From assembly GCA_943354605.1 (NCBI GenBank), contig CALRCK010000006.1, forward strand, positions 1 to 50,953: a stretch of 50,953 nt of DNA. Reading direction: 5' to 3'. Below are positions 19,134 through 46,860 of the stretch, one piece after another. How positions within the stretch are numbered: position 1 is the stretch's first letter; every line of letters starts with the position of its first letter. The notes under the pieces were generated by a model that was not told the DNA's origin, did no database searches, and worked only from the letters and a program-made list of their open reading frames with translations. The stretch is from Candidatus Uhrbacteria bacterium (GTDB taxonomy: Bacteria > Patescibacteriota > Patescibacteriia > UBA9934). The position numbers and the translations under genes are program-made.

Positions 19134-19485
19134 CTGAGCCTTTGAGGGGTTGTGGCGGGAAGGGGGAGGTGAGCATTGGATGGAATGAGAGCGGCGGCGA
19201 TGGCATCGGCGAGAGTGTGGGTACTCGATTTCAAAACAGATGTTTTGCTAACGCAACTGAGTTGCATTTAGGAAACACTCCTTTTGTGTGGCGGATCCGA
19301 ATGGGACCTATACGACCAATAGGACCGATGTTGAAGCGTTATGGGAAAGCTTCTTCACTTTTCATCGATTTCCGGCTCAGATCGCGTTTTGTTGCCCAGT
19401 TCTAAAACCCCAAAATTCGAAGGTATCATTTTCTGTCGCAGTACCCCATGCTCCCAGGTTTCGTCCCACCTCTTCCAAGGCTCAG
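19134..19485 (+). repeat. Dispersed ~340-bp non-coding element, copy A (MITE-like or structured RNA)
   Basis: Termini CTGAGCCTTTGA...TCCAAGGCTCAG; conserved blocks shared with 33296-33630 (inverted) and 46532-46860. Confidence 0.85.
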
Positions 19486-19530
19486 GCCAGTTTCACGCCC
19501 GGCCCGATTTCCGCTACACTTCCATGCGCT

Positions 19531-21663
19531 ATGAAAGATTTTTTTCTCTCCCAGCAGCAGCCGTCGCCAAATCTTCATATTGACTATCAATCGGAGCTAA
19601 ACGACGAGCAATATCGGGTGGTTTCTGGTGGCGGTGGGCCGATGTTGGTGCTGGCCGGAGCAGGAAGCGGGAAGACGAGAACGATCACGTATCGCGTGGC
19701 ATGGTTACTCGAGCATGGCACGCCGGTGGAGAACATGTTGTTGCTCACGTTTACGAATAAAGCGGCGAAAGAAATGATGACGCGTGTTGAGGGATTGCTC
19801 CGCGCGTATCCAACCGGACTGTGGAGCGGAACCTTTCACTCCATTGCGAACCGCATGTTGCGGATGTACGGCGCGTACACCGGATTTGGAAGCGATTTTT
19901 CGATTTTGGACGAGGAGGATGCGAACGACTTGATGAAGATGTGCATCAAGGAGCTGAAGATCGACACGAAGGGACGACGATTTCCGAGCGTTGGGGTGTT
20001 GCGCGGATTGTTGTCCTATGCGAACAACGCACGTCGATCGTTGCAGTCGGTGCTGAACGATCGCGCAGAACACTTTGTAGGGATTCTTCACGAGGTGACT
20101 GCAGTTGCGGAGCGATACGCGTCGGCAAAGCGCATGGCGAAGGCGATGGATTTTGACGACCTCCTTCTTGAACTTTTGAAATTACTGCAGGAGAACGAGT
20201 CCGTTCGCGCGCAGCTTGCACATCGATTTCAGTTTATTCTCGTGGACGAGTTCCAGGATACAAATATTATTCAGTCCGACATCGTCGATTTGTTGTCGTC
20301 GGGTCACCGAAATCTGTTGGTGGTTGGGGACGACGCGCAGAGCATTTATTCCTTTCGTGCCGCAGAAATTCGGAACATCCTTGATTTTCAGAAACGGTAT
20401 TCGGACGCGCAGTCGTACCGACTCGTGATGAACTATCGCTCGACGCCAGAGATTCTCGCGGTGGCGAATGCCGTCATCGCAAACAACAGCGAGCAGTTCG
20501 CGAAGGAATTGGTATCGGCAAAGACTTCTGGCGAAAAGCCGAACATTGTTCCAGCGAATGATGCGCGGGAAGAGGCACAGTATGTCGTTGAACAGCTTTT
20601 GAAGCTGATCGACGAAGGAATCGAGCTCCAAGGAATCGCGGTGTTGTTTCGTGCAGCATTCCATTCGCAAGCGCTCGAATTTGAATTGATGAAGCGGGGG
20701 ATTGCATACGAATACCGCGGCGGCATGAAGTTTTTTGAGCGTGCGCATATTAAGGACGCTGTTGCGCACCTTCGATTGCTTCGCAACGGTCACGACCTTG
20801 TGGCCTGGGCTCGTGCGCTCCAAATTCAGCCAGGGCTTGGGATTACCACCAGCCAGAAGATTGCGGAAACCATGAGCCAGTACGATTCCGCCCGCGATGC
20901 CCTTGAAGCGCCAATGAAACTTTCTCCTCGCGCACAGTTAGGCTTTGCGGGAACGCGATCGATTCTTCGGATGATGCTTGCGGCACCACTGCCATCGGAA
21001 GCCGTGCGCGCGTTTGCGAATCATGAATCGTATCGGTTGTATCTTGAAGCAGAATATCCGAACGCTCGTGAGCGTGTTGAAGACTTGGATCAGCTTGCCG
21101 TGTTCGCAGAACAGTATCGCGATCTTGGTGCATTCTTGGACGCGATGACATTGGCTGGTGATTTTAGCGGAAGAATTGATGACGCCGATTCTGGTCAGCG
21201 TGAAGAAGGCGATCGAAACACATTAATCTTATCGACCATTCATCAGGCGAAAGGATTAGAATGGGACGCGGTGTTTGTACTGCATTGCGCACAAGGCATG
21301 TTCCCAAGCGACCGAAGCATGGGGCAATCGCGGGAAATTGAGGAAGAGCGACGACTGTTTTACGTTGCGGCAACACGTGCACGATCGAAACTGTACTTCA
21401 CCTACCCGCTGACGACGGGATACGAATCGGTGGAGCTTCGTCAGCAATCGATGTTCCTCGACGAGATTCCGTTCGGTATGGCGGAAACGGTTCGCCTCCG
21501 TCGTGCAATGCCAGCGTGGAGCATGTCATCGTCGTACAGCTCACCAACCGTCTCGCGTCACCACCAATCCGACGAGTTCGAAGAACCCACAATCGTTCTC
21601 GACGACATGGGGGAGAAAATGGTAAAAAAGAGTGCACCCGGATCGTTTCTTGGGGATCATTAA
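19531..21663 (+). CDS. pcrA: UvrD/PcrA SF1 DNA helicase
   Basis: LAGAGSGKT, TFTNKAA, VDEFQDTN, VGDDAQSIY.FR, NYRS, STIHQAKGLEW, EERRLFYVA.TRA. Confidence 0.93.
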   Translation: MKDFFLSQQQPSPNLHIDYQSELNDEQYRVVSGGGGPMLVLAGAGSGKTRTITYRVAWLLEHGTPVENMLLLTFTNKAAKEMMTRVEGLLRAYPTGLWSGTFHSIANRMLRMYGAYTGFGSDFSILDEEDANDLMKMCIKELKIDTKGRRFPSVGVLRGLLSYANNARRSLQSVLNDRAEHFVGILHEVTAVAERYASAKRMAKAMDFDDLLLELLKLLQENESVRAQLAHRFQFILVDEFQDTNIIQSDIVDLLSSGHRNLLVVGDDAQSIYSFRAAEIRNILDFQKRYSDAQSYRLVMNYRSTPEILAVANAVIANNSEQFAKELVSAKTSGEKPNIVPANDAREEAQYVVEQLLKLIDEGIELQGIAVLFRAAFHSQALEFELMKRGIAYEYRGGMKFFERAHIKDAVAHLRLLRNGHDLVAWARALQIQPGLGITTSQKIAETMSQYDSARDALEAPMKLSPRAQLGFAGTRSILRMMLAAPLPSEAVRAFANHESYRLYLEAEYPNARERVEDLDQLAVFAEQYRDLGAFLDAMTLAGDFSGRIDDADSGQREEGDRNTLILSTIHQAKGLEWDAVFVLHCAQGMFPSDRSMGQSREIEEERRLFYVAATRARSKLYFTYPLTTGYESVELRQQSMFLDEIPFGMAETVRLRRAMPAWSMSSSYSSPTVSRHHQSDEFEEPTIVLDDMGEKMVKKSAPGSFLGDH

Positions 21664-21681
21664 AGTCAGTACATTGTTCCA

Positions 21682-21848: not shown

Positions 21849-21882
21849 CCTCGGCGCCACCCGTTGAATCGCTCGCTACGCT
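21849..21882 (+). repeat. 34-bp intergenic repeat, copy 1
   Basis: CCTCGGCGCCACCCGTTGAATCGCTCGCTACGCT; 33/34 identical to 28418-28451. Confidence 0.8.
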
Positions 21883-25649: not shown

Positions 25650-27224
25650 ATGTACGAACGATTAGCGAAACTTGCGGCAGGCCTGAAACATCGCGAAAGC
25701 GTTGTTGCGGCAACGAACGGCGAAGAAACCATCGAAGTGAGCGTTCCGGCGTCTACCGCGGCGTCCATTTACGAAAAGGTTCGGAACACGCTCGATTATC
25801 AGGAAGAGCATCTGCTTCGTCGGAATGCCATCGAACGTATTCTTCGGAGGTATCGTGGGGGAGGCGAATCGCCAGAGCGCATGGCGAGCGAGTTGTTGAA
25901 GGAATTGGTGTGGGCGAAGTATTTGCCGAACAAGACGATTCCCGTGTCGTTGGGAAACACGATTGCGATTATTTTGGGAAAATACGAACCGTTGTTCGCG
26001 GCGGTCATGGCTGTAAAGGCGAACCGCGAGCGTTTGAACACCTGGTTGCTTGATGTTGTGGCCACAGAAGTGGAGTACACGCTTGCTCCACCAATGGCGG
26101 ACGAAGCAATGGCGAGTTTTATGTACGAGGAAATGCGTTCGCGCATTGATTGGGATCCAAAGTTTGGATTGAGCGACGAAACAAAAGATTTGCGATTGTA
26201 CACCGCGATTCATCGCACGCTCCTTAAGAGTAATGCCGCAACGCTGCGGTTCCGATTATTGACGCTGTACTACCCAACATGGGCCGGTGTGCAGGCGACA
26301 TCAGCACTGAGCGATGAGCTTGCGGCGAATATTGTTCGGGTTATTGAAACGATCGAGACAGAGATTTTTCACCCGCTCACCGATCGACTTTCACGCGTGC
26401 TTCGTCGGAAGGCGGGAATTTTCCGCGTGCTTCGCGACGCATTTGTGCATGCAAAAGATTCATCCAAGCTGTTGAACGATGCTGGTGCGTTGGACGACGC
26501 GGTGAAGGAGTTACTGCATCACCGTACGGATGATTTTCGTGTCCGATTGCGCCGAACGGTGGTGCGTACGGTGTTGTTCCTTTTTATTACGAAAATGTTA
26601 CTCGCATTGATTCTTGAGGTGCCATACGATTTGTTTATCGTGCAAGACGCGTCGTGGTATCCACTGTTGGTGAATATTACGTTCCATCCGTTGTTCTTGG
26701 CGCTGATCGGTTTGACGGTGACGATTCCGGAAAAGAAGAATGTGGAAGACTATCAAGGCGCCGTTCGCGCAATTGCGGTTGGTGCGCAACACCAGCTTCT
26801 TACGGTTCGCGTGAAGCGAGAGACCCGCGGTGCGTGGTTCAATATTTTCCTCGTGTTGTACGCGGCGTTGTTCATTGTGGTGTTCGGCTTTATTGCATCT
26901 CTTTTGCATGGATTTGGTTTCCACGCATTGTCTATTGGGTTGTTTGTGTTCTTCTTGTCGCTTGTCACCTTCTTTGGAATTCGCATCCGATCATCCACCA
27001 AAGACGTTGTGGCGTCTGATGCGCGAAATGGATTTATTGGTACAGCGTTTGATATTGTTTTATTGCCGATTGTTCGCGCTGGGGCATGGTTGTCCATTCG
27101 TGTTGCGAAGATTAACGTGTTCATTTATTTCTTCGACTTTATTGTTGAGGCGCCGTTGAAAGTCGCGATTGAGTTTGTGGAAAGTTGGCTAACGTTTGTT
27201 CGCGAGAAAAAGGAAGAGATCTAA
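25650..27224 (+). CDS. Conserved hypothetical membrane protein
   Basis: 524-aa ORF; soluble N-terminal part, several C-terminal TM helices; in operon context. Confidence 0.7.
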   Translation: MYERLAKLAAGLKHRESVVAATNGEETIEVSVPASTAASIYEKVRNTLDYQEEHLLRRNAIERILRRYRGGGESPERMASELLKELVWAKYLPNKTIPVSLGNTIAIILGKYEPLFAAVMAVKANRERLNTWLLDVVATEVEYTLAPPMADEAMASFMYEEMRSRIDWDPKFGLSDETKDLRLYTAIHRTLLKSNAATLRFRLLTLYYPTWAGVQATSALSDELAANIVRVIETIETEIFHPLTDRLSRVLRRKAGIFRVLRDAFVHAKDSSKLLNDAGALDDAVKELLHHRTDDFRVRLRRTVVRTVLFLFITKMLLALILEVPYDLFIVQDASWYPLLVNITFHPLFLALIGLTVTIPEKKNVEDYQGAVRAIAVGAQHQLLTVRVKRETRGAWFNIFLVLYAALFIVVFGFIASLLHGFGFHALSIGLFVFFLSLVTFFGIRIRSSTKDVVASDARNGFIGTAFDIVLLPIVRAGAWLSIRVAKINVFIYFFDFIVEAPLKVAIEFVESWLTFVREKKEEI

Positions 27225-27246
27225 AGTGCTGTGGTAAAATACGAAC

Positions 27247-28257
27247 ATGAACGAACGGAGGCATCGTGTTCGAGGGTTACGCGAAGCTGTGGCATTTGCT
27301 GCGGTGTGTTTGATGACGTTTGCCGCGGTGGCGTGTATTGGTGTGTTGATTCTTTTTCGTCCAGGCGCAGACAAACTTGGTATCACGTTTTCAAGCTCAT
27401 ATTCACAAGATCTTGATTTGAATCCGGAGGAAGTGTTCACGGCGCTCGTCGGCGACCTTGGTGCAAGGCGCGTGCGTATTCCGGTGTACTGGAGTGATCA
27501 GGAGACGGCACCTGGCGTGTACGATTTTTCGGCGTTGGATTCGTTGATGCAGATTGCAAGCGCGCACGATGTTGAGGTAACACTTGCCATTGGCATGAAA
27601 GTCCCGCGATGGCCAGAATGTTACTTGCCGGCGTTTGTGAATGGGATGAACGAGACGGAATTGAATGCCGCGGTGTACCGGTACGATCAAGCGCTGATCG
27701 ACCATGCAAAGGTGTATCCTGCGCTGGTGCGTTGGCAAGTAGAAAATGAGCCGCTCTTTCCGTACGGCGATTGCCCAACACCGTCGCTTGAGCGATTAAC
27801 GCACGAAGTTTCCTTGGTTCGTGGGCTTGATACGGTGCATCCGGTGATGCTCACCGTGAGTGGCGAACAGGAACCGTGGCTCGATCTTTCGAGCATTGCG
27901 GACACGATCGGTGTCAGTATGTATCGGTTTGCCTACAACGACGTGCTTGGTGCGGTCGCGTTTCCGTACAGTCCGCTGTACTACCGTGTTCATGCAATCA
28001 TCACCAAACTTTTCGCAAAGGATGTCGTTATTTCTGAGCTGCAAATGGAACCGTGGTTTACGGACGATCCACAAAAGCCAGAGTCGATGGTGGTTCCGTT
28101 CACTGCGGCCGATTTTGTTGATCACATGGATTTCGTGAAGCAAACCGGCATTCACGAGGTGTTGCTTTGGGGTGCGGAGTGGTGGTATTACCAGAAGGTT
28201 CATGGCGATCCTTCGCTCTGGAACATTGCGAAACAGGTATTCTCTGAGTCGAAATAA
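27247..28257 (+). CDS. Membrane-anchored clan GH-A glycoside hydrolase
   Basis: N-terminal TM; VRIPVYW...E..PG.YDF, WQVENEP (acid/base), ISELQ (nucleophile). Confidence 0.78.
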   Translation: MNERRHRVRGLREAVAFAAVCLMTFAAVACIGVLILFRPGADKLGITFSSSYSQDLDLNPEEVFTALVGDLGARRVRIPVYWSDQETAPGVYDFSALDSLMQIASAHDVEVTLAIGMKVPRWPECYLPAFVNGMNETELNAAVYRYDQALIDHAKVYPALVRWQVENEPLFPYGDCPTPSLERLTHEVSLVRGLDTVHPVMLTVSGEQEPWLDLSSIADTIGVSMYRFAYNDVLGAVAFPYSPLYYRVHAIITKLFAKDVVISELQMEPWFTDDPQKPESMVVPFTAADFVDHMDFVKQTGIHEVLLWGAEWWYYQKVHGDPSLWNIAKQVFSESK

Positions 28258-28460
28258 CAAGGATCCGTCAGTGATCATCACTCGCTGGTGGCTCGGATCC
28301 ATTCTTCTACACTCCGCGCGAATCCCCTACGCTGCAACGTCTCGCTTACGCTCGACTGCAGCTGTGGGGCGCGTGCTCGTTGGAAGAATGCATCCTCGCC
28401 ACTGGCGCGAGCGATGTCCTCGGCGCCACCGGTTGAATCGCTCGCTACGCTGGGTTCATC
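28257..28460 (+). repeat. Structured intergenic element ending in 34-bp repeat copy 2
   Basis: Nested stems CATTCTTC/GAAGAATG, CCCC/GGGG, GCTGCA/TGCAGC; repeat at 28418-28451. Confidence 0.6.
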
Positions 28461-28475
28461 TTCATTCTCGCCATT

Positions 28476-29153
28476 ATGCTCACACCCGCTCAAGAAAAAT
28501 TATTGCAGCAGCTCACAACCAAGCGAGGCAGACGCGAGGCGGAGATGTTCGTGATTGAAGGCGAGAAGTTTGTTCGCGATGCTGGTGGACTGGTGGAGTT
28601 CACGTTTACGCCTGCCGACACTGTGCGGTTCGCGGAATATGTTTCCACAGAAACACCGCAAGCGTTCGCTGCAGTCGCGCGCATTCCGAAAGTCACCATG
28701 AAGCGTTTCGCGGAATCGCCGACGATTGTTGTGCTCGACGGCGTGCAAGATCCAGGAAATGTTGGAACCATTTTGCGTGCGGCACTCGGGTTTGGCGCGA
28801 GTGTGTTGTTGGTGGAATCTGCGGAGGTGACGAATCCAAAAGTGGTTCGCGCGTCGGCAAGCGCGATTTTGCGAACGCCGTGGATGACCGTGGCGCGAGA
28901 AGATGCTGGGGCAATTATCGCATCGTTTCATCGGCCGGTGTATCGGCTCGAACTGCGCGACGGCGCGGTGTTGCCGAACGAAATTCGCGCTGAGCCGTGT
29001 GTGGTGGTTGCGGGCAGTGAAGGGAAGGGTATTACGCTTCCTATCGCAGGGACATCTGTCGCAATCCCGCATAATCCTGCACTTGAATCGCTGAACGTTG
29101 GCGTTGCGACATCAATTCTTTTGTATGAACGCTCCAGACAGCTCGCCGTTTAG
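28476..29153 (+). CDS. TrmH/SpoU-family RNA methyltransferase
   Basis: LDGVQDPGNVGTILR, GSEGKG, ESLNVGVA. Confidence 0.92.
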   Translation: MLTPAQEKLLQQLTTKRGRREAEMFVIEGEKFVRDAGGLVEFTFTPADTVRFAEYVSTETPQAFAAVARIPKVTMKRFAESPTIVVLDGVQDPGNVGTILRAALGFGASVLLVESAEVTNPKVVRASASAILRTPWMTVAREDAGAIIASFHRPVYRLELRDGAVLPNEIRAEPCVVVAGSEGKGITLPIAGTSVAIPHNPALESLNVGVATSILLYERSRQLAV

Positions 29154-30300
29154 CGTTCTTCAGCAGCACGGTGCGGCGCGGCGGGGAACGCTGCGCACCA
29201 TGCACGGCGTTGTGCAAACGCCGGTGTTTATGCCTATTGCGACGGCTGGCGCGCTGAAAACGCTGCTGCCAAGCGAAGTGGCGAATCTTGGTGCGTCGAT
29301 TATTCTGGGAAACACGTATCATCTTTTGCTCCGTCCGGGCGAGGAGGAGCTGAAGAAATTCGGCGGCGTTCGTCCATTTATGCATTGGGACGGCCCGTTG
29401 TTGACGGATAGCGGCGGATACCAAGTGTTTAGTTTGTCGAAGCTGAACACAACCGACGACGATGGCGTAACATTTCAATCGCACATTGATGGCAGCACAC
29501 ATCGGCTGACAGCAGAGCGCTCGATGGAAATTCAAGACGCGATCGGCTCTTCAATTCGCATGCAGTTCGACGATGTTGCGGCGGGGAACTCCATTCGCGA
29601 TCGCTACACTGTGGCGATGGAGCGATCGTTGCGTTGGGCTGCGCGATCAAAGAAACGATTTGATGAATTCGTCGTCAATCCCGCGAGTCGCCCCTTACTC
29701 TTCGGCATTGTTCAAGGTGGTACGCACCAAGATCTTCGTGCGCGATCGCTTCAGGGCCTCGTCAATATCGGCTTTGACGGGTACGCGATTGGCGGGCTTT
29801 CTGTTGGTGAATCGCGTGAGGATGCGTTTCGTATTGTTCGATCGCTCGCAAAAGACATGCCGGCTGATTGTCCGCGGTATTTTATGGGTGGGGGAATGCC
29901 GGAAGAAATTGTCGCGTACGTGTCGTTTGGCGTAGACATGTTCGATTGTGTATTGCCAACGCGCAACGCTCGGCATGGATCGTTGTTTGTGTGGAAGGGG
30001 AATCCAGCAGACGCGGTTCGTGAAGCGTTTGCCCGGGCGATGGATGGCGCTGCAGACTTTCGTATTGCCGAGGCACTGTACGAAAAGATCCAAATTACGA
30101 ATGAGCGCTTTACTGCGGACGACGCCCTCATCGACGCGTGGAACGACGCAGAAACGTCGAAAACGTTTTCTCGAGCGTATTTACGGCATCTTTTCAAAAC
30201 CGGCGAAACACTGGGGCTGCGGCTTGCAACCCTGCAAAATCTGGGCTTTTATCTGCGAATGATGGAGGAATTGCGTTTGATCACAGCGAATCCCTTGTGA
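29125..30300 (+). CDS. tgt: tRNA-guanine transglycosylase
   Basis: TPVFMP, NTYHL, TDSGGYQVFSL, GIVQGG, GGLSVGE, GVDMFDCVLPTRNAR. Confidence 0.95.
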   Translation: MNAPDSSPFSVLQQHGAARRGTLRTMHGVVQTPVFMPIATAGALKTLLPSEVANLGASIILGNTYHLLLRPGEEELKKFGGVRPFMHWDGPLLTDSGGYQVFSLSKLNTTDDDGVTFQSHIDGSTHRLTAERSMEIQDAIGSSIRMQFDDVAAGNSIRDRYTVAMERSLRWAARSKKRFDEFVVNPASRPLLFGIVQGGTHQDLRARSLQGLVNIGFDGYAIGGLSVGESREDAFRIVRSLAKDMPADCPRYFMGGGMPEEIVAYVSFGVDMFDCVLPTRNARHGSLFVWKGNPADAVREAFARAMDGAADFRIAEALYEKIQITNERFTADDALIDAWNDAETSKTFSRAYLRHLFKTGETLGLRLATLQNLGFYLRMMEELRLITANPL

Positions 30301-30332
30301 AAACTCTCAATTTTGCCTAGAATGCTCGCACT

Positions 30333-32330: not shown

Positions 32331-32334
32331 TCTT

Positions 32335-33237: not shown

Positions 33238-33249
33238 AATATTGAGAAG

Positions 33250-33277
33250 CAAAACGAGCTCGAAAGGGCTCGTTTTG
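33250..33277 (+). terminator. Intrinsic terminator after secF
   Basis: CAAAACGAGCTC-GAAA-GGGCTCGTTTTG. Confidence 0.8.
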
Positions 33278-33295
33278 GTATCTCATCACCCTGGC

Positions 33296-33630
33296 CTGAA
33301 CCTTTGAAGAGGGTGGGACGAGAGGGCATGCGGCTGGGAGTGTGGGGTACTGCGACAGAAAGAGGTACCCTCGAATTTTGTGGTTTTCAAACTGGGCAAC
33401 GGAATGTGATCTGAGCCTGAAATACACGAAATGCGAAATCGAATTCGGAAATATTCAAACCACGATCACAAACGACGCTGTCGACAACCACGCAGATCAC
33501 CAAAATCAACCAGCGTTTCCTTAATGCAAATGAGTTGCGTTAGCAAAACACCCTGTTTGAAATCAAATACCCCAGGCTCGCAAGCCCCCTCCTTACTCCC
33601 CTCCGCTCACAACCCCCCCTAAAGGTTCAG
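33296..33630 (-). repeat. Dispersed ~340-bp non-coding element, copy B (inverted)
   Basis: Plus-strand termini CTGAACCTTTGA...CTAAAGGTTCAG; reverse complement aligns along its length with copy C. Confidence 0.85.
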
Positions 33631-33681
33631 TTCAGGACTGTACTGCTGGCGCGTGCTATAATCGCAAGGAGTTTATCGCCT

Positions 33682-35172: not shown

Positions 35173-35178
35173 TTCGTT

Positions 35179-37161: not shown

Positions 37162-37170
37162 TTGCATTCT

Positions 37171-37944
37171 ATGGCGGTGATTTCTGCGCTCGTGCTTGGG
37201 TTGGTTGAGGGAATCACCGAGTTTTTGCCGGTATCATCGACCGGTCATCTCATTCTCTTCAACGAATGGTTTTCGTTTACGCCAGCGTTCACAAAGACGT
37301 TCGATATCGTTATTCAATTCGGCGCGATCCTCGCGGTGGTTGTGGTTTTTGCAAAACGATTCTGGCCGCTGAACGGATCGAATCTCCAATTGTGGAAGCG
37401 CGTGGTCGTGTCCGTGTTGCCGGCGCTCGTGTTCGGTGCGCTGTTTGGTTCGAAAATTCAAGAGGCATTATTCAATCCAACGGTTGTCGCGATCGCGTTG
37501 ATTATCGGCGGCGTTATCCTTCTGATCGCTGAACGATCGCGCAGGAAAGAATCGATCACAGATGTTGCGAAAATCGGGTACGGAAAGGCTTTCGCTATTG
37601 GCTGTATTCAGTGTTTAGCCTTTATTCCCGGAACGTCCCGATCGGCCGCCACGATCATCGGCACTATGTTCCTCGGTGCTTCGCGAGCGACTGCGGCGGA
37701 ATATTCGTTCTTTCTTGCAGTGCCAACCATTGCTGCGGCATCGGCATTTTCACTGCTGAAGCATCCAGTCGCGCTTGCAGGAAACGATGCGCTCATTCTC
37801 ACAATCGGATTCGTGGTTGCGTTCCTCTCTTCACTTGTCGTGATTCGATTATTCCTCCAATACATTCGCAATAAAACCTTCACGCCATTTGCGTATTATC
37901 GGATCGTGCTCGGCATTGTCATCCTGCTATTCTTTGCTCGATAA
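37171..37944 (+). CDS. uppP: Undecaprenyl-diphosphate phosphatase
   Basis: EGITEFLPVSSTGH, IQFGAILA, PGTSRS. Confidence 0.95.
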   Translation: MAVISALVLGLVEGITEFLPVSSTGHLILFNEWFSFTPAFTKTFDIVIQFGAILAVVVVFAKRFWPLNGSNLQLWKRVVVSVLPALVFGALFGSKIQEALFNPTVVAIALIIGGVILLIAERSRRKESITDVAKIGYGKAFAIGCIQCLAFIPGTSRSAATIIGTMFLGASRATAAEYSFFLAVPTIAAASAFSLLKHPVALAGNDALILTIGFVVAFLSSLVVIRLFLQYIRNKTFTPFAYYRIVLGIVILLFFAR

Positions 37945-37970
37945 CGCATTTTCGAGTACCGTAAGCGCGT

Positions 37971-38831
37971 ATGTCTACCCCCGTTGTTCGCGAATCTGCA
38001 GTCTGGAGCGATATTGCGCTGCTCGATTCTGGAAATTTTGAAAAGTGCGAGCGCTACGGCGATATTGTCATGATTCGTCCAGAACCACAGGCGTTGTGGG
38101 ACGTTGGGAATCCTTCGGGTTGGCAATCTGCGCATTTGGCGTATAAGCGACAGGGCCGTGAAGGGGAATGGACCACACACAAGCCGGTTCCAGAATCGTG
38201 GAATGTTTCATGGGAAAATCTGACGTTCCGTATTCGTCCAACGTCGTTTAAGCATACGGGGCTTTTTCCTGAACAGGCGAGTAATTGGAAGTGGATTCGG
38301 GAGAATGTGAAATCGGGAATGACGGTGCTCAACCTTTTCGGTTACACCGGTGGCGCAACATTGGCTGCGGCGAGTGTTGGAGCCGATGTGACGCATTGCG
38401 ATGCGAGTAAGCCGGTGGTGACGTGGGGCAAAGAGAACGCGGAGCTTTCCGGGCTCGGCGATGCTCCGATTCGATGGATCGTCGACGATGTGCAAAAGTT
38501 TGTCTCGCGTGAAATTCGTCGGGGGAACACCTACGACGTGATCATGCTTGATCCTCCGGCATTCGGTCGTGGGCCAGAGGGGGAATTGTGGCAGTTTGAA
38601 GAGCACCTCCCGGTACTGCTCGCCGACTGTGCGAAGCTGTTGAAACCAGAATCTGGAGCACTGGTATTGAATGCATATTCTCTGGGATTCCCGGCGCTGG
38701 CTCTCGAGAACCTTGTTCGAACGACGATGCCGTTTGTGAAAATAATCGCAGCGGTGGAACTCACACTCAAAGAAGAATCTCCCCGCGCATTCGAATTGCC
38801 AACCGGCATCGTGATTCGTGCAACGTGGTAG
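37971..38831 (+). CDS. Class I SAM-dependent methyltransferase (RlmI-like)
   Basis: FKHTGLFPEQ, LNLFGYTGG, LDPPAFG. Confidence 0.85.
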   Translation: MSTPVVRESAVWSDIALLDSGNFEKCERYGDIVMIRPEPQALWDVGNPSGWQSAHLAYKRQGREGEWTTHKPVPESWNVSWENLTFRIRPTSFKHTGLFPEQASNWKWIRENVKSGMTVLNLFGYTGGATLAAASVGADVTHCDASKPVVTWGKENAELSGLGDAPIRWIVDDVQKFVSREIRRGNTYDVIMLDPPAFGRGPEGELWQFEEHLPVLLADCAKLLKPESGALVLNAYSLGFPALALENLVRTTMPFVKIIAAVELTLKEESPRAFELPTGIVIRATW

Positions 38832-38886
38832 TCGATGTTGATAATCGATGGCTTGGATTTGATTGCTTTGATACGATGAACTGACT

Positions 38887-39267
38887 ATGACTGACGAAGA
38901 AAAAAATCAGCTTGGTGCCGTCCTCGAAATCGTGCAATCCATGCAAAAAATCATGGCCACGAAGGACGATCTGAAGAGCTTCGCCACGAAGGACGATCTG
39001 AAGAGCTTCGCCACGAAGGACGATCTGAAGAGCTTCGCCACGAAGGACGATGTCGCTGCTATTCTTGAGGATATTGAGTTTATTAAGGATTCAATGGCGA
39101 CTAAGGAGGATCTTGCTGCTGTAAAATCTGAACTCATTACGCATATCGATGGTTTTGCGCAGCAGAATCAGAAATTTGACCATGAACTTGTTGCTGCACG
39201 GTCGCAATGCAACCGTATTGAGGAACGCGTGGAGGTTTTAGAATTGAAGGCGGGAATCGGGGCGTAA
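38887..39267 (+). CDS. Small coiled-coil protein with ATKDDLKSF repeats
   Basis: 126 aa; 9-aa tandem repeats; heptad pattern. Confidence 0.7.
   Translation: MTDEEKNQLGAVLEIVQSMQKIMATKDDLKSFATKDDLKSFATKDDLKSFATKDDVAAILEDIEFIKDSMATKEDLAAVKSELITHIDGFAQQNQKFDHELVAARSQCNRIEERVEVLELKAGIGA
38956..39051 (+). repeat. Perfect 27-bp tandem repeat (3 units plus 15 bp)
   Basis: GCCACGAAGGACGATCTGAAGAGCTTC x3 plus GCCACGAAGGACGAT. Confidence 0.95.
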
Positions 39268-39269
39268 AT

Positions 39270-39842
39270 ATGAACGACATTGTCTTGGACATCGAAACAC
39301 AGAACACGTTCGAGGAGGTTGGGGGATATTTCACTGATAAATTGAAGGTCTCGATCGTTGTTGCGTATTACTACGCAACCGATACGTACGAATCATATTT
39401 AGAGCACGAGCTTCCGCTCATGTTTAAGAAGCTCGAAACCGGCGGGAGAATCATTGGGTACAACTCCATTGGGTTTGACATGCCCGTGTTGAATAATTAT
39501 TACGCTGGTGACCTTCTACAATTGCCGCAACTCGATATTCTGAAAGAGATTGAGAAGTCTCTTGGCTACCGCATTAAGCTCGACGATGTTGCCGCGGCAA
39601 CGATCGGTGCCCGAAAATCAAGCCATGGATTGCAAGCCGTTGCTTGGTGGAAAGAGGGGAAAATCGATGAAATTCGGGAGTATTGTCAGCAGGACGTGAA
39701 GGTAACAAAAGAGGTGTACGAATTTGGCCTGAAAAATGGCTATGTGCTGTTCGATGACCGGTCTGGAGAGCGTCGATTGATCCCAGTGAATTTCACCCCA
39801 GTTCCCGAAAAGACCGTCGTGAATTTGACGATGGGTTTCTAG
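39270..39842 (+). CDS. RNase H-like / DnaQ-type 3'-5' exonuclease domain protein (YprB-like)
   Basis: LDIET (Exo I), GYN..GFD (Exo II), YC.QDV (Exo III). Confidence 0.82.
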   Translation: MNDIVLDIETQNTFEEVGGYFTDKLKVSIVVAYYYATDTYESYLEHELPLMFKKLETGGRIIGYNSIGFDMPVLNNYYAGDLLQLPQLDILKEIEKSLGYRIKLDDVAAATIGARKSSHGLQAVAWWKEGKIDEIREYCQQDVKVTKEVYEFGLKNGYVLFDDRSGERRLIPVNFTPVPEKTVVNLTMGF

Positions 39843-39975
39843 GGACTTATCCCCGTGGATATGTTCTCTTGACCGCGCCTTGGAACACTCCAGGGCGTGT
39901 TTTTTCTTGATTTTTTTTGGGTGAAAAATCCGCAACGGCGTTATCCACTTTTTTGGTGGACCGTCGAACTGCAGA

Positions 39976-40023
39976 CCACTAGATGTAGTGCTATACTCGC
40001 CAATGCACCACAAGCGATTGTGT
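39976..40023 (+). promoter_or_regulatory. Tandem NrdR boxes
   Basis: CCACTAGATGTAGTGC (39976-39991) and CCACAAGCGATTGTGT (40008-40023), 32 bp apart, flanking a TATACT -10 upstream of nrdJ. Confidence 0.82.
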
Positions 40024-40129
40024 TGCGTCGTCGATAGGAGGAATCCACCCAGATTCTTCTTCTGGGATTTTTTTATCCCAAATGTGATCAACGTCGTCAT
40101 TTATTTATTCCGCTAGACCTCGAAGATGT

Positions 40130-43100
40130 ATGTCCGCAGCAATTGTGAAGGAGGGCACAGTACAAACACGCGAAGCTGATGTCACGTCCGCCGTGTATGG
40201 CTACATGACGTCGGTGAAGGAGGTGGTGAAGCGCGACGGAACGCATGAGGTGTTTTCTTCGGAGAAGCTTGAGCGATCGGTGATCCAAACGTTGCTCGCT
40301 GCGGGGTTGAAAGAAAAAGATCTTCCACGCTACGTGAATCGCATCACCGGAAATATCCTTTCTCGCATTCAACGCCGTTTTGATGGTCACACCACGCCAA
40401 CATCCAGCATTATTCGGGAGATGGTTGCTGTTGCGCTGATCGACAATAACCTTGTCCATGTTGCTCGCGTGTTTTTGTCCTACCGAAAATCCGATGTCGC
40501 TCTTGCTGCGGAGCAGTACGGAAAGGGTATTTCCATGGATCGCTATTTCACCAAGGAAGGTGTTCATCCGTACGATTTGCTCACCTGGGAGAAGCGCACG
40601 GCGAGCATTACGAACGAAAAGGGTGCCGTGGTTTTTGAGCAGAAGGACATTGAGGTTCCAAGCACCTGGAGCCAAACATCGGTGAACATCGTTGCGCAGA
40701 AGTATTTCCGCGGAAAAGTCGGCACACCAGAGCGCGAAACGTCAATGAAGCAGCTCATGAGCCGTGTTGCGGTGACGATGGCGAACTGGGGCCGAAAGGA
40801 TGGCTATTTTGCAACCAAGAAAGACGCGCAGGTGTTTGAAGACGAATTGACTTGGATTTTGGTGAACCAAATGGCGGCATTTAACTCGCCAGTGTGGTTC
40901 AACGTTGGCATCAATCCACACCCACAGTGCTCGGCATGTTTCATTAATAGCGTTGAGGACGACATGCGTTCAATTCTTCACCTGACGGCTACCGAAAGCA
41001 TGTTGTTCAAGCAGGGTTCGGGAACCGGATCAAACCTTTCCAATCTCCGATCGTCCCAGGAATACCTTGGTGGAAGCAACGGCCGATCATCGGGTCCGGT
41101 GAGTTTCATGAAGGGCTTGGACTCCTTCGCGGGCATTGTGAAGTCTGGCGGAAAGACGCGCCGCGCCGCGAAGATGGTTATTCTGAACGTTGGTCACCCA
41201 GACATCATGACGTTCATCGAATGTAAGGCAAAGGAAGAGCGCAAGGCATGGACGTTGGTGGATGCTGGGTACGACAGCGGCATGGATGGTGAAGCATACG
41301 GATCCATCTACTTCCAGAACGCCAACAACTCGGTGCGTGTGACCGACGACTTTATGCGTGCGGTGGAAATGGATGGCGAGTGGGTGACGCACGAAGTAAC
41401 GACCGGCAAGCCATCCTTGACGTACAAGGCGCGAGACGTGATGCGCAGCATGGCGGAGTGCGCGTGGCAGTGCGGTGACCCTGGCATTCAGTACGATACA
41501 ACCTCGAATCGTTGGCACACGTCAAAGAACACGGGCCGAATCAATGCAAGCAACCCATGTTCGGAATACATGTTCTTGGACGACACCGCGTGTAACTTGT
41601 CGTCACTGAACTTGATGAAGTTCCGCAAGGAAGTGAATGGCGTCATGGAGTTTGATGTGCAGTCGTTCATTCGCGCAGCAAAGGTGATGATTACCGCCAT
41701 GGAAATCACCGTCGGCAACTCGAGCTACCCAACACCATCCATTGAACAGAACAGCCACGATTTCCGTCCACTCGGAATTGGCTTTGCAAACCTTGGTGCA
41801 CTCTTGATGAGCCGCGGCGTTGCGTACGACTCTGACGAAGGCCGAAACATTGCCGGCGGAATTATGTCGTTGCTTTCTGGCTGTACGTACGAACAGAGCG
41901 CGCATATTGCGGAGAAGATTGGCGCGTTCGCTGGATTCGAATTGAACAAGGAGCCATGTATGGAAGTGATGCGCATGCATCGCGACGCAACATATGCAAT
42001 GAACCTTGAATCGTTGCCAGCCGACATTGCTGCTGCCGCAAAGGCATCGTGGGACAAGGTTGTTGAGGAAGGCGAAAAACACGGTTTGCGTAATGCGCAG
42101 ATTTCCGTACTTGCTCCAACAGGAACCATCGCGTTCTTGATGGACTGCGACACCACGGGAATTGAACCAGACATCGCGATCGTCAAATATAAGTGGTTGG
42201 TTGGTGGTGGAATGCTCAAAATGGTGAACCAGACCGTTCCAGAAGCATTGACGCGCTTGGGCTACAGCGCGGATGAGCGCAAGGCGATCCTCGAATTTAT
42301 CGACAAGCAGGATACCATCGAAGGCGCACCATTCGTGAAGCCAGAACATCTTTCCGTCTTCGACTGTGCGTTTAAGGCAAAGAATGGCGTGCGGTCGATT
42401 CACTACATGGGTCACCTTCGTATGATGGCCGCAGTGCAGCCGTTTATTTCTGGTGCCATCAGCAAAACGGTGAACATGCCAAACGAGGCAACGGTTGAGG
42501 AAATCGAAAAAGTGTACATGGAAGGTTGGAAGATGGGGTTGAAAGCGATCGCCATTTACCGCGACGGCAGCAAGCGTCAGCAAGCACTCACCACCAGCAA
42601 GGAAAAGGATTCGGGAAAGATGAATGCGGATATTAAGACGGCTGCGGCTGCAACGGCTGCTGCGGAGTCGGTGCCAACCGTGAAGGTTGCGCCAATCGCG
42701 GAGAATGGTAATGCACCACGTCGTCGCCGCTTGCCAGATGAACGTCGTGCAATCAACCACAAGTTCTTGGTTGGCGGACACAAGGGCTTCATCACCGTCG
42801 GCTTGTACGACGACGGCACGCCAGGCGAGATGTTCATTACCATGGCGAAGGAAGGATCGGTCATCAGTGGTTTGATGGATGCGTTCGCAACGTCAGTTTC
42901 TATCGGCTTGCAGTACGGCGTGCCAATCCAGGTCCTCGTAAACAAGTTCGTGCACATGCGGTTTGAGCCATCCGGATTCACGAACAACCCAAACATCCGC
43001 ATTGCGAAATCGATCGTCGATTACATCTTCCGCTGGATGGCGCTCAAGTTCCTTTCGCCACAAGAACAGATTGCTGTTGGTATCAACGTGGTCCCAGCAA

Positions 43101-43366
43101 TCGGCGATTCCGTTGTTGCCGATCGTGCTGTCGACCCTGCTGTAGCTCCAGCGCAAGCCACGGAACTCCAGCCAACCATCTTCGCCACGGCATCCGAGGC
43201 AAATCCAATGATGACTCCTGGCACAGCGCCACAGAAAACAGGTCTCACGTCCACCTTCAACAACACTGCTGACGCCCCAGCCTGCGACACCTGCGGCAAC
43301 ATCATGGTGCGCAACGCAGCCTGCTACAAGTGCCTGAACTGCGGCAGCACAAGCGGATGCTCCTGA
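40130..43366 (+). CDS. nrdJ: Class II (adenosylcobalamin-dependent) ribonucleotide reductase with N-terminal ATP-cone
   Basis: VVKRDG ATP-cone, FNSPVWFN, QCSACF, RRAAKM, SNPCSEY, APTGTI, C-terminal TSCPD-like domain and Cys-rich ribbon. Confidence 0.95.
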   Translation: MSAAIVKEGTVQTREADVTSAVYGYMTSVKEVVKRDGTHEVFSSEKLERSVIQTLLAAGLKEKDLPRYVNRITGNILSRIQRRFDGHTTPTSSIIREMVAVALIDNNLVHVARVFLSYRKSDVALAAEQYGKGISMDRYFTKEGVHPYDLLTWEKRTASITNEKGAVVFEQKDIEVPSTWSQTSVNIVAQKYFRGKVGTPERETSMKQLMSRVAVTMANWGRKDGYFATKKDAQVFEDELTWILVNQMAAFNSPVWFNVGINPHPQCSACFINSVEDDMRSILHLTATESMLFKQGSGTGSNLSNLRSSQEYLGGSNGRSSGPVSFMKGLDSFAGIVKSGGKTRRAAKMVILNVGHPDIMTFIECKAKEERKAWTLVDAGYDSGMDGEAYGSIYFQNANNSVRVTDDFMRAVEMDGEWVTHEVTTGKPSLTYKARDVMRSMAECAWQCGDPGIQYDTTSNRWHTSKNTGRINASNPCSEYMFLDDTACNLSSLNLMKFRKEVNGVMEFDVQSFIRAAKVMITAMEITVGNSSYPTPSIEQNSHDFRPLGIGFANLGALLMSRGVAYDSDEGRNIAGGIMSLLSGCTYEQSAHIAEKIGAFAGFELNKEPCMEVMRMHRDATYAMNLESLPADIAAAAKASWDKVVEEGEKHGLRNAQISVLAPTGTIAFLMDCDTTGIEPDIAIVKYKWLVGGGMLKMVNQTVPEALTRLGYSADERKAILEFIDKQDTIEGAPFVKPEHLSVFDCAFKAKNGVRSIHYMGHLRMMAAVQPFISGAISKTVNMPNEATVEEIEKVYMEGWKMGLKAIAIYRDGSKRQQALTTSKEKDSGKMNADIKTAAAATAAAESVPTVKVAPIAENGNAPRRRRLPDERRAINHKFLVGGHKGFITVGLYDDGTPGEMFITMAKEGSVISGLMDAFATSVSIGLQYGVPIQVLVNKFVHMRFEPSGFTNNPNIRIAKSIVDYIFRWMALKFLSPQEQIAVGINVVPAIGDSVVADRAVDPAVAPAQATELQPTIFATASEANPMMTPGTAPQKTGLTSTFNNTADAPACDTCGNIMVRNAACYKCLNCGSTSGCS

Positions 43367-43380
43367 AGAATGTTCAAGAA

Positions 43381-43411
43381 CATAGGTCCTATTGGACCAA
43401 TAGGACCTATG
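43381..43411. repeat. Perfect 31-bp palindrome built from 9-bp periodic units
   Basis: CATAGGTCCTATTGG-A-CCAATAGGACCTATG, ending on the cobO ATG. Confidence 0.85.
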
Positions 43412-43996
43412 ACTCAATTTGAAAAACCCATTCTCGACGAACGCATTAAGGGCCGACAAGGTTACGGGCTGATTCAGCTCATTCATGGCCATGGAAAAGG
43501 GAAGACGACGGCGGCGTTGGGGCAGGCGGTGCGGTGTGCGGGGGCGGGGAAGAGGGTGTTGATTGTGTATTTTGATAAAGGTGGAACGTCGCATTACAGC
43601 GAGCGGTGCATTATCGACCAGATTGAGGGAATCGATTATGTCGCCACTGGGCGAGATCGGATCGACCCTGTCACGAACCGGTTCGACTTTTCAATTACGG
43701 ATGAGGACCGAACAGAGGCCGCGAAGGGAATCGAAGTGGCGAAGGCGGCGATGATGTCGGGGGAGTACGATCTGGTGATTCTCGATGAGATTAATTCCAC
43801 GCAGAACCTTGGGATGCTTTCGGTTGAATCGGTGATCGATGCGCTGCGATCGAAGGGGGAGAATGTTGAGGTGATTCTCACGGGAAGAAACCCTGCGCAA
43901 GAGTTCCTCGACGCCGCACATCTCGTCACGGAAATGCAATTACAAAGGCATTATTTCTATTCTGGTGTTCAGGCTCGGGAGGGGCTGGACTTCTAA
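43409..43996 (+). CDS. cobO: Cob(I)alamin adenosyltransferase (CobO/BtuR)
   Basis: G.GKGKTTAALG.A.R..G.G, YDLVILDEI, VILTGR, ADLVTEM-like AHLVTEM, AREGLDF. Confidence 0.92.
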   Translation: MTQFEKPILDERIKGRQGYGLIQLIHGHGKGKTTAALGQAVRCAGAGKRVLIVYFDKGGTSHYSERCIIDQIEGIDYVATGRDRIDPVTNRFDFSITDEDRTEAAKGIEVAKAAMMSGEYDLVILDEINSTQNLGMLSVESVIDALRSKGENVEVILTGRNPAQEFLDAAHLVTEMQLQRHYFYSGVQAREGLDF

Positions 43997-44113
43997 CTGG
44001 TCGAAAATCCCATTCTCCTGTATGTTCTTTTTCTGTTGTGGATACGTACTCCCTCGGATTCTTCCGAGCCGGGTATACTGATCCCGAACATTGTTGTTCT
44101 CATCAAATTTTCT

Positions 44114-44542
44114 ATGATTATTGCCGAGATTATTTCAGCGCTTCAAAACGGGACCGATATTGTTGTTCGCGATAAAACCTTTCATCCTCGTTCGGTCGAA
44201 ACCGTTATTCTCGATTCCGGCGAGAATGTGTTTTGGGCTTACGGCGATGCTGGCATCTGGCTTTCGGTGGATCCAGGCGGAGAGGAGATTATGCAATTTG
44301 AGGATATTGATGAGGAGCTTGAGCCCGAAGACGACGTGGTGGTGTACGGCGGAAACGACTTTGAGTTCTCGTATGAGGGCTCTGCAACATTGAAGGATGA
44401 CGAAACTGCGGCGATGTACACCTTCCGCGAGTTTGAAAGCGCCGACGGCCGGCGTATTCGCCTCACAACCGACGAGGGGAACGGCGATACCACTGTGTCT
44501 TCCGGATCCGTGGTGACCGAGGAAGAAATTCAAGAAGCATAA
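44114..44542 (+). CDS. Acidic hypothetical protein
   Basis: 142-aa ORF followed by a terminator. Confidence 0.6.
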   Translation: MIIAEIISALQNGTDIVVRDKTFHPRSVETVILDSGENVFWAYGDAGIWLSVDPGGEEIMQFEDIDEELEPEDDVVVYGGNDFEFSYEGSATLKDDETAAMYTFREFESADGRRIRLTTDEGNGDTTVSSGSVVTEEEIQEA

Positions 44543-44549
44543 ACAGAAA

Positions 44550-44573
44550 CGGACGCTTCGGCGTCCTTTTTTG
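44550..44573 (+). terminator. Intrinsic terminator
   Basis: GGACGC-TTCG-GCGTCC-TTTTTT. Confidence 0.85.
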
Positions 44574-44586
44574 TTATACTTCCCGT

Positions 44587-46512
44587 ATGGTCTCTCTCCG
44601 TGAACGTGACGCTGGAACGCATGGGAAACGCCTCCGAATGTTGCGAGGTGTTCTTTTTGCTTTTTTTGGAGTGATTTGGATTCGTCTTTTTGTGCTGCAA
44701 GTGGTTTCTGCGGAGTTTTATCAAGACATCGCCAACGGCAAATATTCTTTGTACGAGGAGCTTGTTCCAGAGCGCGGGAAGATCACGGTTCACGATTTTG
44801 ACGACCCTACGCCATACGACGTTGCAACGAACGAACCGCAAGCGGTGATAACGGCGGATCCGCGGAAAATTACCGACGCCACCGATGCTGGAAAACGCAT
44901 TGCACAGGCATTGGGATGGGAAGGCGTGGACGAATACGATCGGTACGCGCTGATTGCGAGCCTCGAATCGCAAGGAAAACAGGACGAAGCCGACTCGCTC
45001 CGAGCGTTGACCGCTTGCGCCCCGGCGACGGTTACGACCCCCTCCGACTCCCCCTTAGCAGAGGGAGAGGTGTCATCGGAGGAGGTTGAATCCGATGCGT
45101 GTCTTCAAGAAGACGCAAACGTGAAAAAGATTACGGATCTTATTGCTCGCCTTGGGAAGCACGACGATCCATACGAGCCCGTTGCAGAAGGTGTCGACGC
45201 GGAGTCGCTCGACCGATTGCTCGCGCTGAACATCGACGGTATTTCTTACGTCCTCAAGGATTCGCGATCGTATCCAGAGAAGGGATTCGGTGGCCATGTG
45301 TTGGGATTTGTCGGAAAAGATGATTCAGATAACCCAGTGGGGAACTACGGACTTGAGGGATATTTTAATGATTTTCTTGCCGGAAAGCCGGGTGAAATTT
45401 CGTCACAGCTCGCAAGCCGGGCCTATACGCCGGCGATTGACGGCGGTTCGTTGGTGCTGACGATTGACCGCACGGTGCAGTACACGGCGTGCAAGATGCT
45501 CCGCGACGGCGTGCAGCAGTATCACGCGGATACTGGTGTGCTTGTTATTGTGGAGCCGTCGACGGGCAGAATTCTTGCGATGTGTGGTAGTCCAGATTTC
45601 GATCCCGCAGAGTATTCCAACGTTGGGAGTATTTCCGACTTTAACAATCAGGCGATTTTTACGCCATACGAACCGGGCTCGATTTTTAAGCCGTTCACTC
45701 TTGCGGCTGGTATCGATACGGGTGCCATTACGCCGAACACCGTTTTTGACGACCCAGGTTTTGTAAAACTCGACGATCGAACCATCCGCAATGCGCTCGA
45801 AAAGTCGTATGGAAAAATTACCATGACACAGGGCCTTGAAGAATCGGTGAACACCGCGATGGTGTATGCCATGGAGCGCACCGGAAAAGATACATTTACG
45901 CAATATGTGAAGAATTTTGGTTTCGGAACGCTGACAGGCATTACGTTGAACACTGAAGTTGCGGGAACGGTTGCGTCGCTCGATGAACCAGGAATTGTGT
46001 ATGCCGGCACGGCAAGTTTTGGACAAGGTATTACGGTGACGCCGCTGCAGATTGTGATGGGCTATGCGGCGATCGCGAACGGGGGATCGTTGATGGTTCC
46101 ACAGATTGTGGACGAGATGCAATATTCCGACGGTACCATCGACAAAAAACTTCCCGTGAAAGTTCGGCAGGTTATTGATGCAAAAACTGCGACAACCGTT
46201 GGTGGCATGCTTGTTTCCGTGGTGGAGAACGGTCACGGAAAGCGTGCAAAAGTTCCGGGATATTGGATTGCGGGGAAGACGGGAACGGCACAGATTGCTG
46301 AGAACGGTGGATATTCGGAAACCGCGTTTAACGGATCGTTTGCGGGGTTTGGCCCAGTCGAAAACCCGAAGTTTGCGATGATCGTCAAACTTTCCAATCC
46401 AAAAACAGCATCGAACCTTGGCGTTGCGTGGGGTGAGGCGACCGCAGCACCAATCTTTGGTGAAATCGCAAAGTTCCTCATGCAGTACTACCGCATTCCA
46501 CCGACGAGGTAG
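44587..46512 (+). CDS. Class B penicillin-binding protein (FtsI/PBP2-like)
   Basis: TM anchor, RG.I, R.YP, G.YGLE, EPGSIFK (SxxK), SVN (SxN), KTGTAQ. Confidence 0.93.
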   Translation: MVSLRERDAGTHGKRLRMLRGVLFAFFGVIWIRLFVLQVVSAEFYQDIANGKYSLYEELVPERGKITVHDFDDPTPYDVATNEPQAVITADPRKITDATDAGKRIAQALGWEGVDEYDRYALIASLESQGKQDEADSLRALTACAPATVTTPSDSPLAEGEVSSEEVESDACLQEDANVKKITDLIARLGKHDDPYEPVAEGVDAESLDRLLALNIDGISYVLKDSRSYPEKGFGGHVLGFVGKDDSDNPVGNYGLEGYFNDFLAGKPGEISSQLASRAYTPAIDGGSLVLTIDRTVQYTACKMLRDGVQQYHADTGVLVIVEPSTGRILAMCGSPDFDPAEYSNVGSISDFNNQAIFTPYEPGSIFKPFTLAAGIDTGAITPNTVFDDPGFVKLDDRTIRNALEKSYGKITMTQGLEESVNTAMVYAMERTGKDTFTQYVKNFGFGTLTGITLNTEVAGTVASLDEPGIVYAGTASFGQGITVTPLQIVMGYAAIANGGSLMVPQIVDEMQYSDGTIDKKLPVKVRQVIDAKTATTVGGMLVSVVENGHGKRAKVPGYWIAGKTGTAQIAENGGYSETAFNGSFAGFGPVENPKFAMIVKLSNPKTASNLGVAWGEATAAPIFGEIAKFLMQYYRIPPTR

Positions 46513-46531
46513 GTATAACATCGATCTGAAG

Positions 46532-46860
46532 CTGAACCTTTGAGGGTTGTGACGGGAGTTCGGAAGGGTCTTGCGAGAGCGGGGGTACTTGATTTCAAAC
46601 AAGGTGTTTTGCAAACGCAACCGAGTTGCGTCTTGAAAACGCTGACTGATTTTGGTGATCTGCGTGGTTGGCGATACCGCCGCTCACGATCATCGATCGC
46701 GCATTTGCGAAATTGATTTCATTCTTTCCCTCAATTCTCAGCTCAGATCGCATTATTGCCACATTTTAAAACCCCAAAATTCGAGGGTACCGTTTTCTGT
46801 CGCAATACCCCATACTCCCCGGCCGCATGCCTTCTCGTCCTCATTCTTTCAAAGGTTCAG
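46532..46860 (+). repeat. Dispersed ~340-bp non-coding element, copy C
   Basis: Perfect 12-bp terminal inverted repeat CTGAACCTTTGA/TCAAAGGTTCAG; blocks shared with copies A and B. Confidence 0.85.

Follow-up and report, generated by a model that had tools for sequence, protein, structure and literature searches.

A new family of elements resembling miniature inverted-repeat transposable elements (MITEs) in one genus of Candidatus Uhrbacteria

What are the three diverged non-coding stretches that lie between the genes of a 50,953-nt piece of a Candidatus Uhrbacteria genome, and how did they come to be there? The piece, referred to here as the window, is contig CALRCK010000006.1 of assembly GCA_943354605.1. 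An earlier note made from its letters had proposed a new MITE-like element, or else a multi-copy structured RNA or single-stranded DNA family, and had called for a copy-number search of the genome and a comparison with empty sites. Both were carried out, on the host genome (G000; 938,277 bases in 11 contigs) and on other genomes of the same genus (G001 to G013). The stretches are copies of a new family inside a MITE-like superfamily of three families, found in one Candidatus Uhrbacteria genus. On balance, we favour the view that the family is non-autonomous, non-coding, MITE-like mobile DNA of 340-390 bp with terminal inverted repeats of 17-18 nt.

The three stretches were found to be homologous over their entire length, with a mean column identity of 77%, at the places and with the ordered shared blocks that had been described. 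The copies in the window are the following:

19128-19491 (+): copy A, full element, 364 nt, flanked by an uncharacterised 134-aa open reading frame (ORF), which has a terminator hairpin, and by a UvrD-type helicase gene
33290-33636 (-): copy B, full element of 347 nt in antisense to the genes on either side, SecF-like upstream and that of an uncharacterised 496-aa protein downstream
46526-46866 (+): copy C, full element, 341 nt, flanked by the genes of a penicillin-binding protein (PBP) transpeptidase and of a Mur ligase

A hidden Markov model (HMM) built from these copies recovered 11 full copies and one truncated copy in the host genome, a count far beyond chance, and BLAST of the genome led to the same 12 places. 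The full copies measure 341-388 nt, and four of them form a subfamily with an additional module of ~45 nt in the 5' arm. The earlier note had also held that the middle of copy A is replaced by a small repeat. A similarity search of the genome found a palindrome of ~30 nt in that position and at three other places (81-90% identity, E-values from 7e-5 to 0.04), which lends this claim some slight weight:

19301-19332 (strand not assigned): palindromic repeat of ~30 nt, replacing part of the middle of copy A
window 43379-43411; contig 5: 37564-37592 and 46389-46421: the other places of this palindrome

When the copies were aligned with 110-nt flanks, homology stopped sharply at the terminal inverted repeats, which contain pentamer repeats and reach ~6 nt beyond the originally described limits at each end. 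In the window they are located as follows:

19128-19145 (+): left terminal inverted repeat of copy A, partner 19474-19491
19474-19491 (+): right terminal inverted repeat of copy A, partner 19128-19145
33619-33636 (-): left (element 5') terminal inverted repeat of copy B, partner 33290-33307
33290-33307 (-): right terminal inverted repeat of copy B, partner 33619-33636
46526-46543 (+): left terminal inverted repeat of copy C, partner 46849-46866
46849-46866 (+): right terminal inverted repeat of copy C, partner 46526-46543

Over 14 end pairs, 79.6% of 142 cells were paired, as opposed to 10-51% when the partner was slid by 1-3 columns, and the end pattern occurred nine times in forward and seven times in reverse direction in the genome, with none in the reversed control. 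The pairing of the ends is thus real in the sense of inverted repeats, but the covariation that had been read into it did not extend to the family. Copies A, B and C do show the compensatory change as it was described, while among nine copies the pair in question is AU in three, GC in one and unpaired in five; the covariation score of the ends (0.119, compared with 0.093 in shuffles) was matched or exceeded in 43 of 500 shuffles.

Searches with models of only the two ends revealed 12 further end pairs in the host genome. The middles of these 12 elements belong to two other core families, each of which has two hairpins of its own, and both sister families have ends, arms and part of the inner frame in common with the family of the window. 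The exact site of one sister element is filled by a full copy of the window family in G011 and G009. Since the sister elements combine the same ends and arms with other cores, the ends are the common part, and they are presumably what a mobilising enzyme would recognise. By sum of lengths, the 23 elements amount to ~7.1 kb, or 0.76% of the genome.

How widely, and how stably, is the family distributed? BLAST detected it in nine of the 13 other genomes of the genus and in none of 47 sampled genomes of other genera. In addition, a covariance model (R1) was made of the conserved 89-nt core, and 57 of its hits from ten genomes, 50 of them distinct, were aligned. The model gave 6-12 hits in seven of the 14 genus genomes and a single hit in two others; five had none, and neither had 54 genomes from 14 other genera of the same taxonomic family. 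The cores of the window copies are:

19216-19304 (+): conserved 89-nt core of copy A, model R1, 79.9 bits, central hairpin at ~19240-19278
33487-33575 (-): conserved 89-nt core of copy B, model R1, 106.4 bits, central hairpin at ~33513-33551
46580-46668 (+): conserved 89-nt core of copy C, model R1, 99.6 bits, central hairpin at ~46604-46642

Mapping of the flanks placed many copies at syntenic sites common to several species, and the comparison with empty sites revealed empty, filled and oppositely filled sites among the species of the genus. The site of copy C is empty in G001 (21 nt between stop and start codons) and in G008, and holds another palindromic insert in G012. That of copy A is empty in G009 and G001, both of which keep the 134-aa ORF; G011 is without ~900 nt matching window 18608-19508, that is, the ORF together with copy A. 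This ORF (18659-19063) had no Pfam or NCBIfam match. A site upstream of groES, beside an inverted-repeat operator, is empty in the host genome, filled in + orientation in G005 and in - orientation in G002. Finally, the orthologues of site B (window 33250-33680) in G005, G009, G011 and G002 each carry a different long palindromic insert that is unrelated to the element. Such varied fillings of the same intergenic spots indicate repeated insertion there, and the spacer between the SecF terminator and the TATAAT box at site B is, to judge from its contents, an insertion hot spot.

Every copy lies between two same-strand genes (gene strand by codon-usage score), and these flanking genes are housekeeping genes. 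The copies sit in intergenic DNA between the terminator of one gene and the promoter of the next, as exemplified by copy B, which stands between an upstream terminator hairpin and a downstream TATAAT box. Relative to the flanking genes, five of the 11 copies run along, five against and one is unclear, and the window copies are oriented +, - and + inside one stretch of positive GC skew. The copies had also been described as lying just upstream of a -10 box. A TACACT or TATAAT hexamer does occur 20-24 nt beyond each window copy. Since empty sites have this hexamer too, it is part of the resident gene, and a consensus sigma-70 scan gave no promoter-like site around any of the three window copies. 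An internal or outward promoter of the element was accordingly discarded. The sole terminator-like match in a scan of the three copies was a weak 5-bp stem inside copy C.

The TACACT hexamer was observed at window 19515-19520 and 46889-46894 and at the orthologous sites, filled or empty. It stands 3-10 nt upstream of the start codons of several genes with no Shine-Dalgarno-like sequence, a placement that may reflect near-leaderless promoters in this lineage.

This regular position raises the question of whether the copies are functional modules of the host, i.e. either a structured RNA gene present in several copies or an element that acts in cis as DNA or RNA (an mRNA 3' stabiliser, an insulator or a protein-binding site) kept between operons. 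The constant placement between terminator and promoter agrees with such a role. So does the truncated copy (contig 3, ~187666-187794), which consists of the left arm and core and whose end is separated by ~20 nt from the start codon of a small gene downstream. It is conserved in both G001 and G008, with weaker conservation in G003; there is no other core hit in G003 and G008. This copy may have been taken over as the upstream region of the small gene. Against a host module stand the random orientation of the copies to the flanking genes, the empty housekeeping sites in relatives, the core being missing from several members of the genus, and the scans just mentioned, with no promoter-like site at the three copies and only a weak terminator-like stem in copy C.

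The coding capacity of the element was examined as well. Nine copies have open frames of 68-81 codons over their 3' two-thirds, and in six of these the frame is a shared one. However, substitutions by codon position (0.27/0.25/0.285) display no periodicity and the frame is broken in five of the 11 copies, so that a hidden small protein was rejected and the earlier view that the element has no conserved ORF was upheld. At the gathering threshold, Rfam matched only a tRNA and an S-adenosylmethionine (SAM) riboswitch in the whole window, neither of them in the element, and a search of five of the 11 copy loci at E<=1 returned only a chance snoRNA match (E 0.57) outside it. No plasmid or phage match for the element was found either, and it thus remains, as first stated, without assignment to a known family. 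The SAM riboswitch (13942-14042, -, 60.3 bits) and the tRNA (50819-50890, +, 61.8 bits) are ordinary.

Does the element then act as a structured RNA? Compared with dinucleotide shuffles, most of the 11 copies fold better, with z-scores from -0.4 to -4.5 on the forward and from -1.7 to -7.7 on the reverse strand; that both strands fold similarly well is as expected of a DNA palindrome. A consensus fold of the whole family has 44 pairs, of which five show a double change, and its covariation term is -0.02 kcal/mol, so that an RNA structure of the whole element is unsupported. The 5' arm is purine-rich and the 3' arm pyrimidine-rich. Pairing specific to each copy was rejected, given that the own arms of one copy pair with -46.0 kcal/mol and the arms of different copies with -45.6 kcal/mol; because own arms pair no better than foreign ones, their complementarity is generic, as is that of the ends. 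The long rod-like fold suggested previously is accordingly not borne out as a structure under selection.

The central hairpin behaves differently. In the R1 alignment, 81.3% of its cells pair (76.4% in shuffles) and 53 cells carry a double change (26.5 +/- 3.6 in shuffles), values that none of 500 shuffles reached, although the aligned hairpins come from related sequences and the model itself guided their alignment. One pair is AU in 37 and GC in 13 sequences and is never broken, a second is CG in 22, AU in 13 and of another kind in 15, and both types of arm are visible in the cross-species alignment. Counts of G-U versus C-A favour neither strand. The central hairpin is, as far as the aligned copies tell, the one part of the element that covaries between species, and the alternative of a structured RNA or single-stranded DNA may find a footing there, but not in the ends or in the fold of the element as a whole. 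For a host module these double changes and the unbroken pair count in favour. They are offset by the equally good folding of both strands, the negligible covariation term of the entire element, the lack of an Rfam match and the dependence of the covariation counts on related sequences and a model-fitted alignment. Even together with the conservation at shared sites reported below, we regard a host-functional module as quite unlikely.

How well, then, does mobile DNA of the MITE type account for these elements? MITEs are known from several bacteria, for example Correia/NEMIS of Neisseria, RUP of pneumococcus and Nezha of cyanobacteria. Like these, the element is small, non-coding and multi-copy, has inverted-repeat ends, lies between genes in either orientation, can fold into a long hairpin and varies in presence among relatives; size, lack of coding capacity, terminal inverted repeats, dispersed copies and insertion polymorphism are all as in MITEs. 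In this respect the proposal of a new MITE-like element has stood, with filled and empty sites added to the inverted-repeat ends and with no match in Rfam or among plasmids and phages. As a working mechanism, a recombinase or transposase supplied in trans would bind both ends, cut the element and rejoin it into intergenic DNA. The enzyme would either no longer be encoded in the host genome or come from a family outside those tested, and the conserved core hairpin and blocks could be cis-signals for movement or sequences put to host use.

A considerable number of observations weigh against this explanation. First, none of the 11 copies shows a target-site duplication, in agreement with the earlier note, although the copies are old and their exact termini are blurred by the pentamer repeats, so that a duplication of 2-3 bp could have been lost. 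Second, no autonomous partner was found in the 14 genus genomes and 26 loci: a longer element with the same ends is missing among the loci of 26 relatives, and the 14 genomes contain no end pairs 0.6-5 kb apart. Moreover, DDE_Tnp_1, rve, DDE_3, Transposase_mut, ISL3, IS110 and TnpB had no match in the host genome. Third, contigs of three DNA runs over 27000-46999 contain no joint across copy B or copy C; the contig of one run spans 46425-46999 with no differences. No RNA run was among the three listed. Finally, the element departs from MITEs in its divergence and in the conservation of its internal blocks and hairpin in place, as well as in its transposase-poor Patescibacteria host of 0.94 Mb.

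In the same DNA runs, another short repeat was noticed at window 28273-28455, where the contigs break and branch and many variant letters occur. A 15-mer at 28416-28430 recurs at 21849-21863 and at about a dozen places in the genome.

The age of the copies bears directly on this matter and likewise does not favour simple transposition. In a comparison of 31 full copies, pairs within a genome were 70.0% identical (n=79), same-site pairs across genomes 65.1% (n=20) and other cross-genome pairs 60.8% (n=366), so that copies group by genome more than by site; a tree (FastTree on a MAFFT alignment, midpoint root, hits <250 nt left out) also grouped them largely by genome and not by site. The closest pair in the host genome is 78.4% alike, with no sign of recent movement, and since the copies are at most 78% alike the family is old and probably inactive or very slow. 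Furthermore, in 12 same-site pairs the conserved columns were 85.5% identical and the variable columns 62.9%, the two classes having been defined on nine further copies that stem from four other genomes. Such conservation in place is what would also be anticipated of a host module, and it is difficult for a dead transposon, which would need gene conversion or selection to produce it. Taken together with the covariation of the central hairpin, the slower-evolving blocks at shared sites argue that the copies are not simply decaying. Constancy in place could arise through selection, through gene conversion or through newer copies replacing older ones at hot spots.

Which enzyme might have moved or multiplied the element? 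Ten transposase and recombinase families of Pfam had no match on the contig of the window, as the earlier note had found for transposases, and TnpB was absent from all 14 genus genomes. The host genome encodes one Xer-like tyrosine recombinase, which also occurs in element-free relatives. These ends are absent from the few insertion sequences of G007 and G009; a link to the rve-type insertion sequence of G007, suggested by a 9-mer shared with the hairpin arm, was put down to chance after R1 gave no match at E<=10. Two other groups of enzymes are present, three HUH/Y1 genes and a set of large serine recombinases.

The HUH/Y1 genes are at the following positions:

contig 3: 145301-146164 (locus L113 1447-2310)
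contig 2: 69072-69650
contig 3: 423-1079

Among them, a 288-aa protein passes the NCBIfam equivalog cut-off for REP-associated tyrosine transposases (RAYTs), with 90.1 bits against 80. The flanks of each gene carry an inverted repeat or palindrome peculiar to that gene, with ~3-10 further occurrences in the genome but none inside the element, and the three genes with their repeats look like three REP/RAYT-like systems. That the RAYT-flanking repeat equals the element ends was considered and rejected, a short-word BLAST having given one 10-nt match at the element edge.

These genes suggest that the element might be a REPIN-like resident, in which single-stranded hairpins are duplicated very slowly by a HUH (RAYT-like) enzyme, inherited vertically and kept by selection, with no cut-and-paste step. 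One account describes REPINs as long-lived, vertically inherited palindromic populations (bioRxiv 10.1101/2021.07.10.451892). The element resembles REPINs and REP/RAYT systems (bioRxiv 10.1101/2021.07.10.451892; see also PMC3116915) in being palindromic, extragenic, non-autonomous and persistent in its lineage, with copies grouping by genome and HUH/RAYT-like genes in the same genome. The vertical, lineage-restricted persistence of REPINs is matched by its restriction to one genus and its shared syntenic sites, and the age of the family, the lack of target duplications and the covarying central hairpin agree with this explanation too. On the other hand, that account gives REPINs as ~100 bp doublets of ~14 bp palindromes, typically in hundreds of copies (bioRxiv 10.1101/2021.07.10.451892), whereas the element measures 341-388 nt, has 6-12 copies per genome and flanks none of the three Y1 genes, whose repeats are three different ones of their own. 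The phyletic patterns differ as well: Y1 genes occur in 12 of the 14 genus genomes, including the core-less G004, G006, G012 and G013 and G003 with its single weak core, and are missing from the element-rich G002 and G007. In addition, the orientation of the element is independent of the replication strand. A resident of this kind, driven by the HUH enzymes, therefore appears to us very unlikely.

Regarding the serine recombinases, the host genome carries five large ORFs (547-746 aa) with a serine-recombinase/resolvase domain and one fragment, on contigs 10, 3, 4 and 1, in a genome of only 0.94 Mb. If such an enzyme moved the element, the inverted-repeat ends would be its recombination sites and no target duplication would be left, in accordance with what is seen, and resolvase-domain genes are indeed found in 11 of the 14 genus genomes (0 to 6 per genome). 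Their distribution fits poorly, however. G011, which is 100% complete, has ten core copies and no resolvase hit, and G012 and G013 have two such genes each and no core. Within 3 kb of the five genes no match to the end models was better than E ~6, and the link consists of co-presence in one genome only. We consider this the least probable of the explanations weighed.

A broader alternative, which we also hold to be unlikely but which deserves to be kept in view, is that the copies are not relics at all. They would then be a vertically inherited population of large modular palindromes with common ends and arms and exchangeable cores, duplicated or homogenised slowly by a HUH or serine recombinase of the host, the core hairpin being a recognition site or a host signal. 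Modular repeats are also known as the BOX repeats of Streptococcus pneumoniae, which are intergenic, have paired end modules and a variable middle, and for which the mobilising enzyme is not known. By description, the element shares with BOX the modular build, the pairing end modules, the variable middle and the intergenic position; it differs in having no sequence relation and in that its middles are distinct hairpin cores defining three families, where BOX has one module repeated a variable number of times. Another group of small elements, the PATEs derived from IS200/IS605, have no terminal inverted repeats, exhibit a strand bias, leave no target duplication and depend on hairpins. Hairpins and the lack of a target duplication are common to both, but the element is clearly bounded by inverted repeats and shows no strand bias, the window copies being +, - and + in one GC-skew regime. 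MITE-like mobile DNA, old and with its enzyme lost or of another family, thus remains the explanation that we prefer.

The general view of Patescibacteria is that their genomes have lost mobile and repetitive DNA. The present genome of 0.94 Mb nonetheless contains ~23 palindromic elements with the same ends, what appear to be three HUH-enzyme/repeat systems and several other small palindromes. Text searches of the literature found no paper linking MITEs or RAYTs to the Patescibacteria phylum. The family could supply markers with which to type strains and date insertions in this uncultured lineage, and it offers a test case for the persistence of repeats with no obvious transposase, in which empty sites are combined with block-wise conservation in place. 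The covarying core hairpin, this conservation and the persistence over the life of a genus leave room for a REPIN-like resident or a module used by the host. If the elements were indeed a resident palindrome population, they would represent a 'genomic symbiont' of the REPIN kind with a new architecture, in a phylum for which none has been described, kept by a streamlined lineage for the lifetime of the genus.

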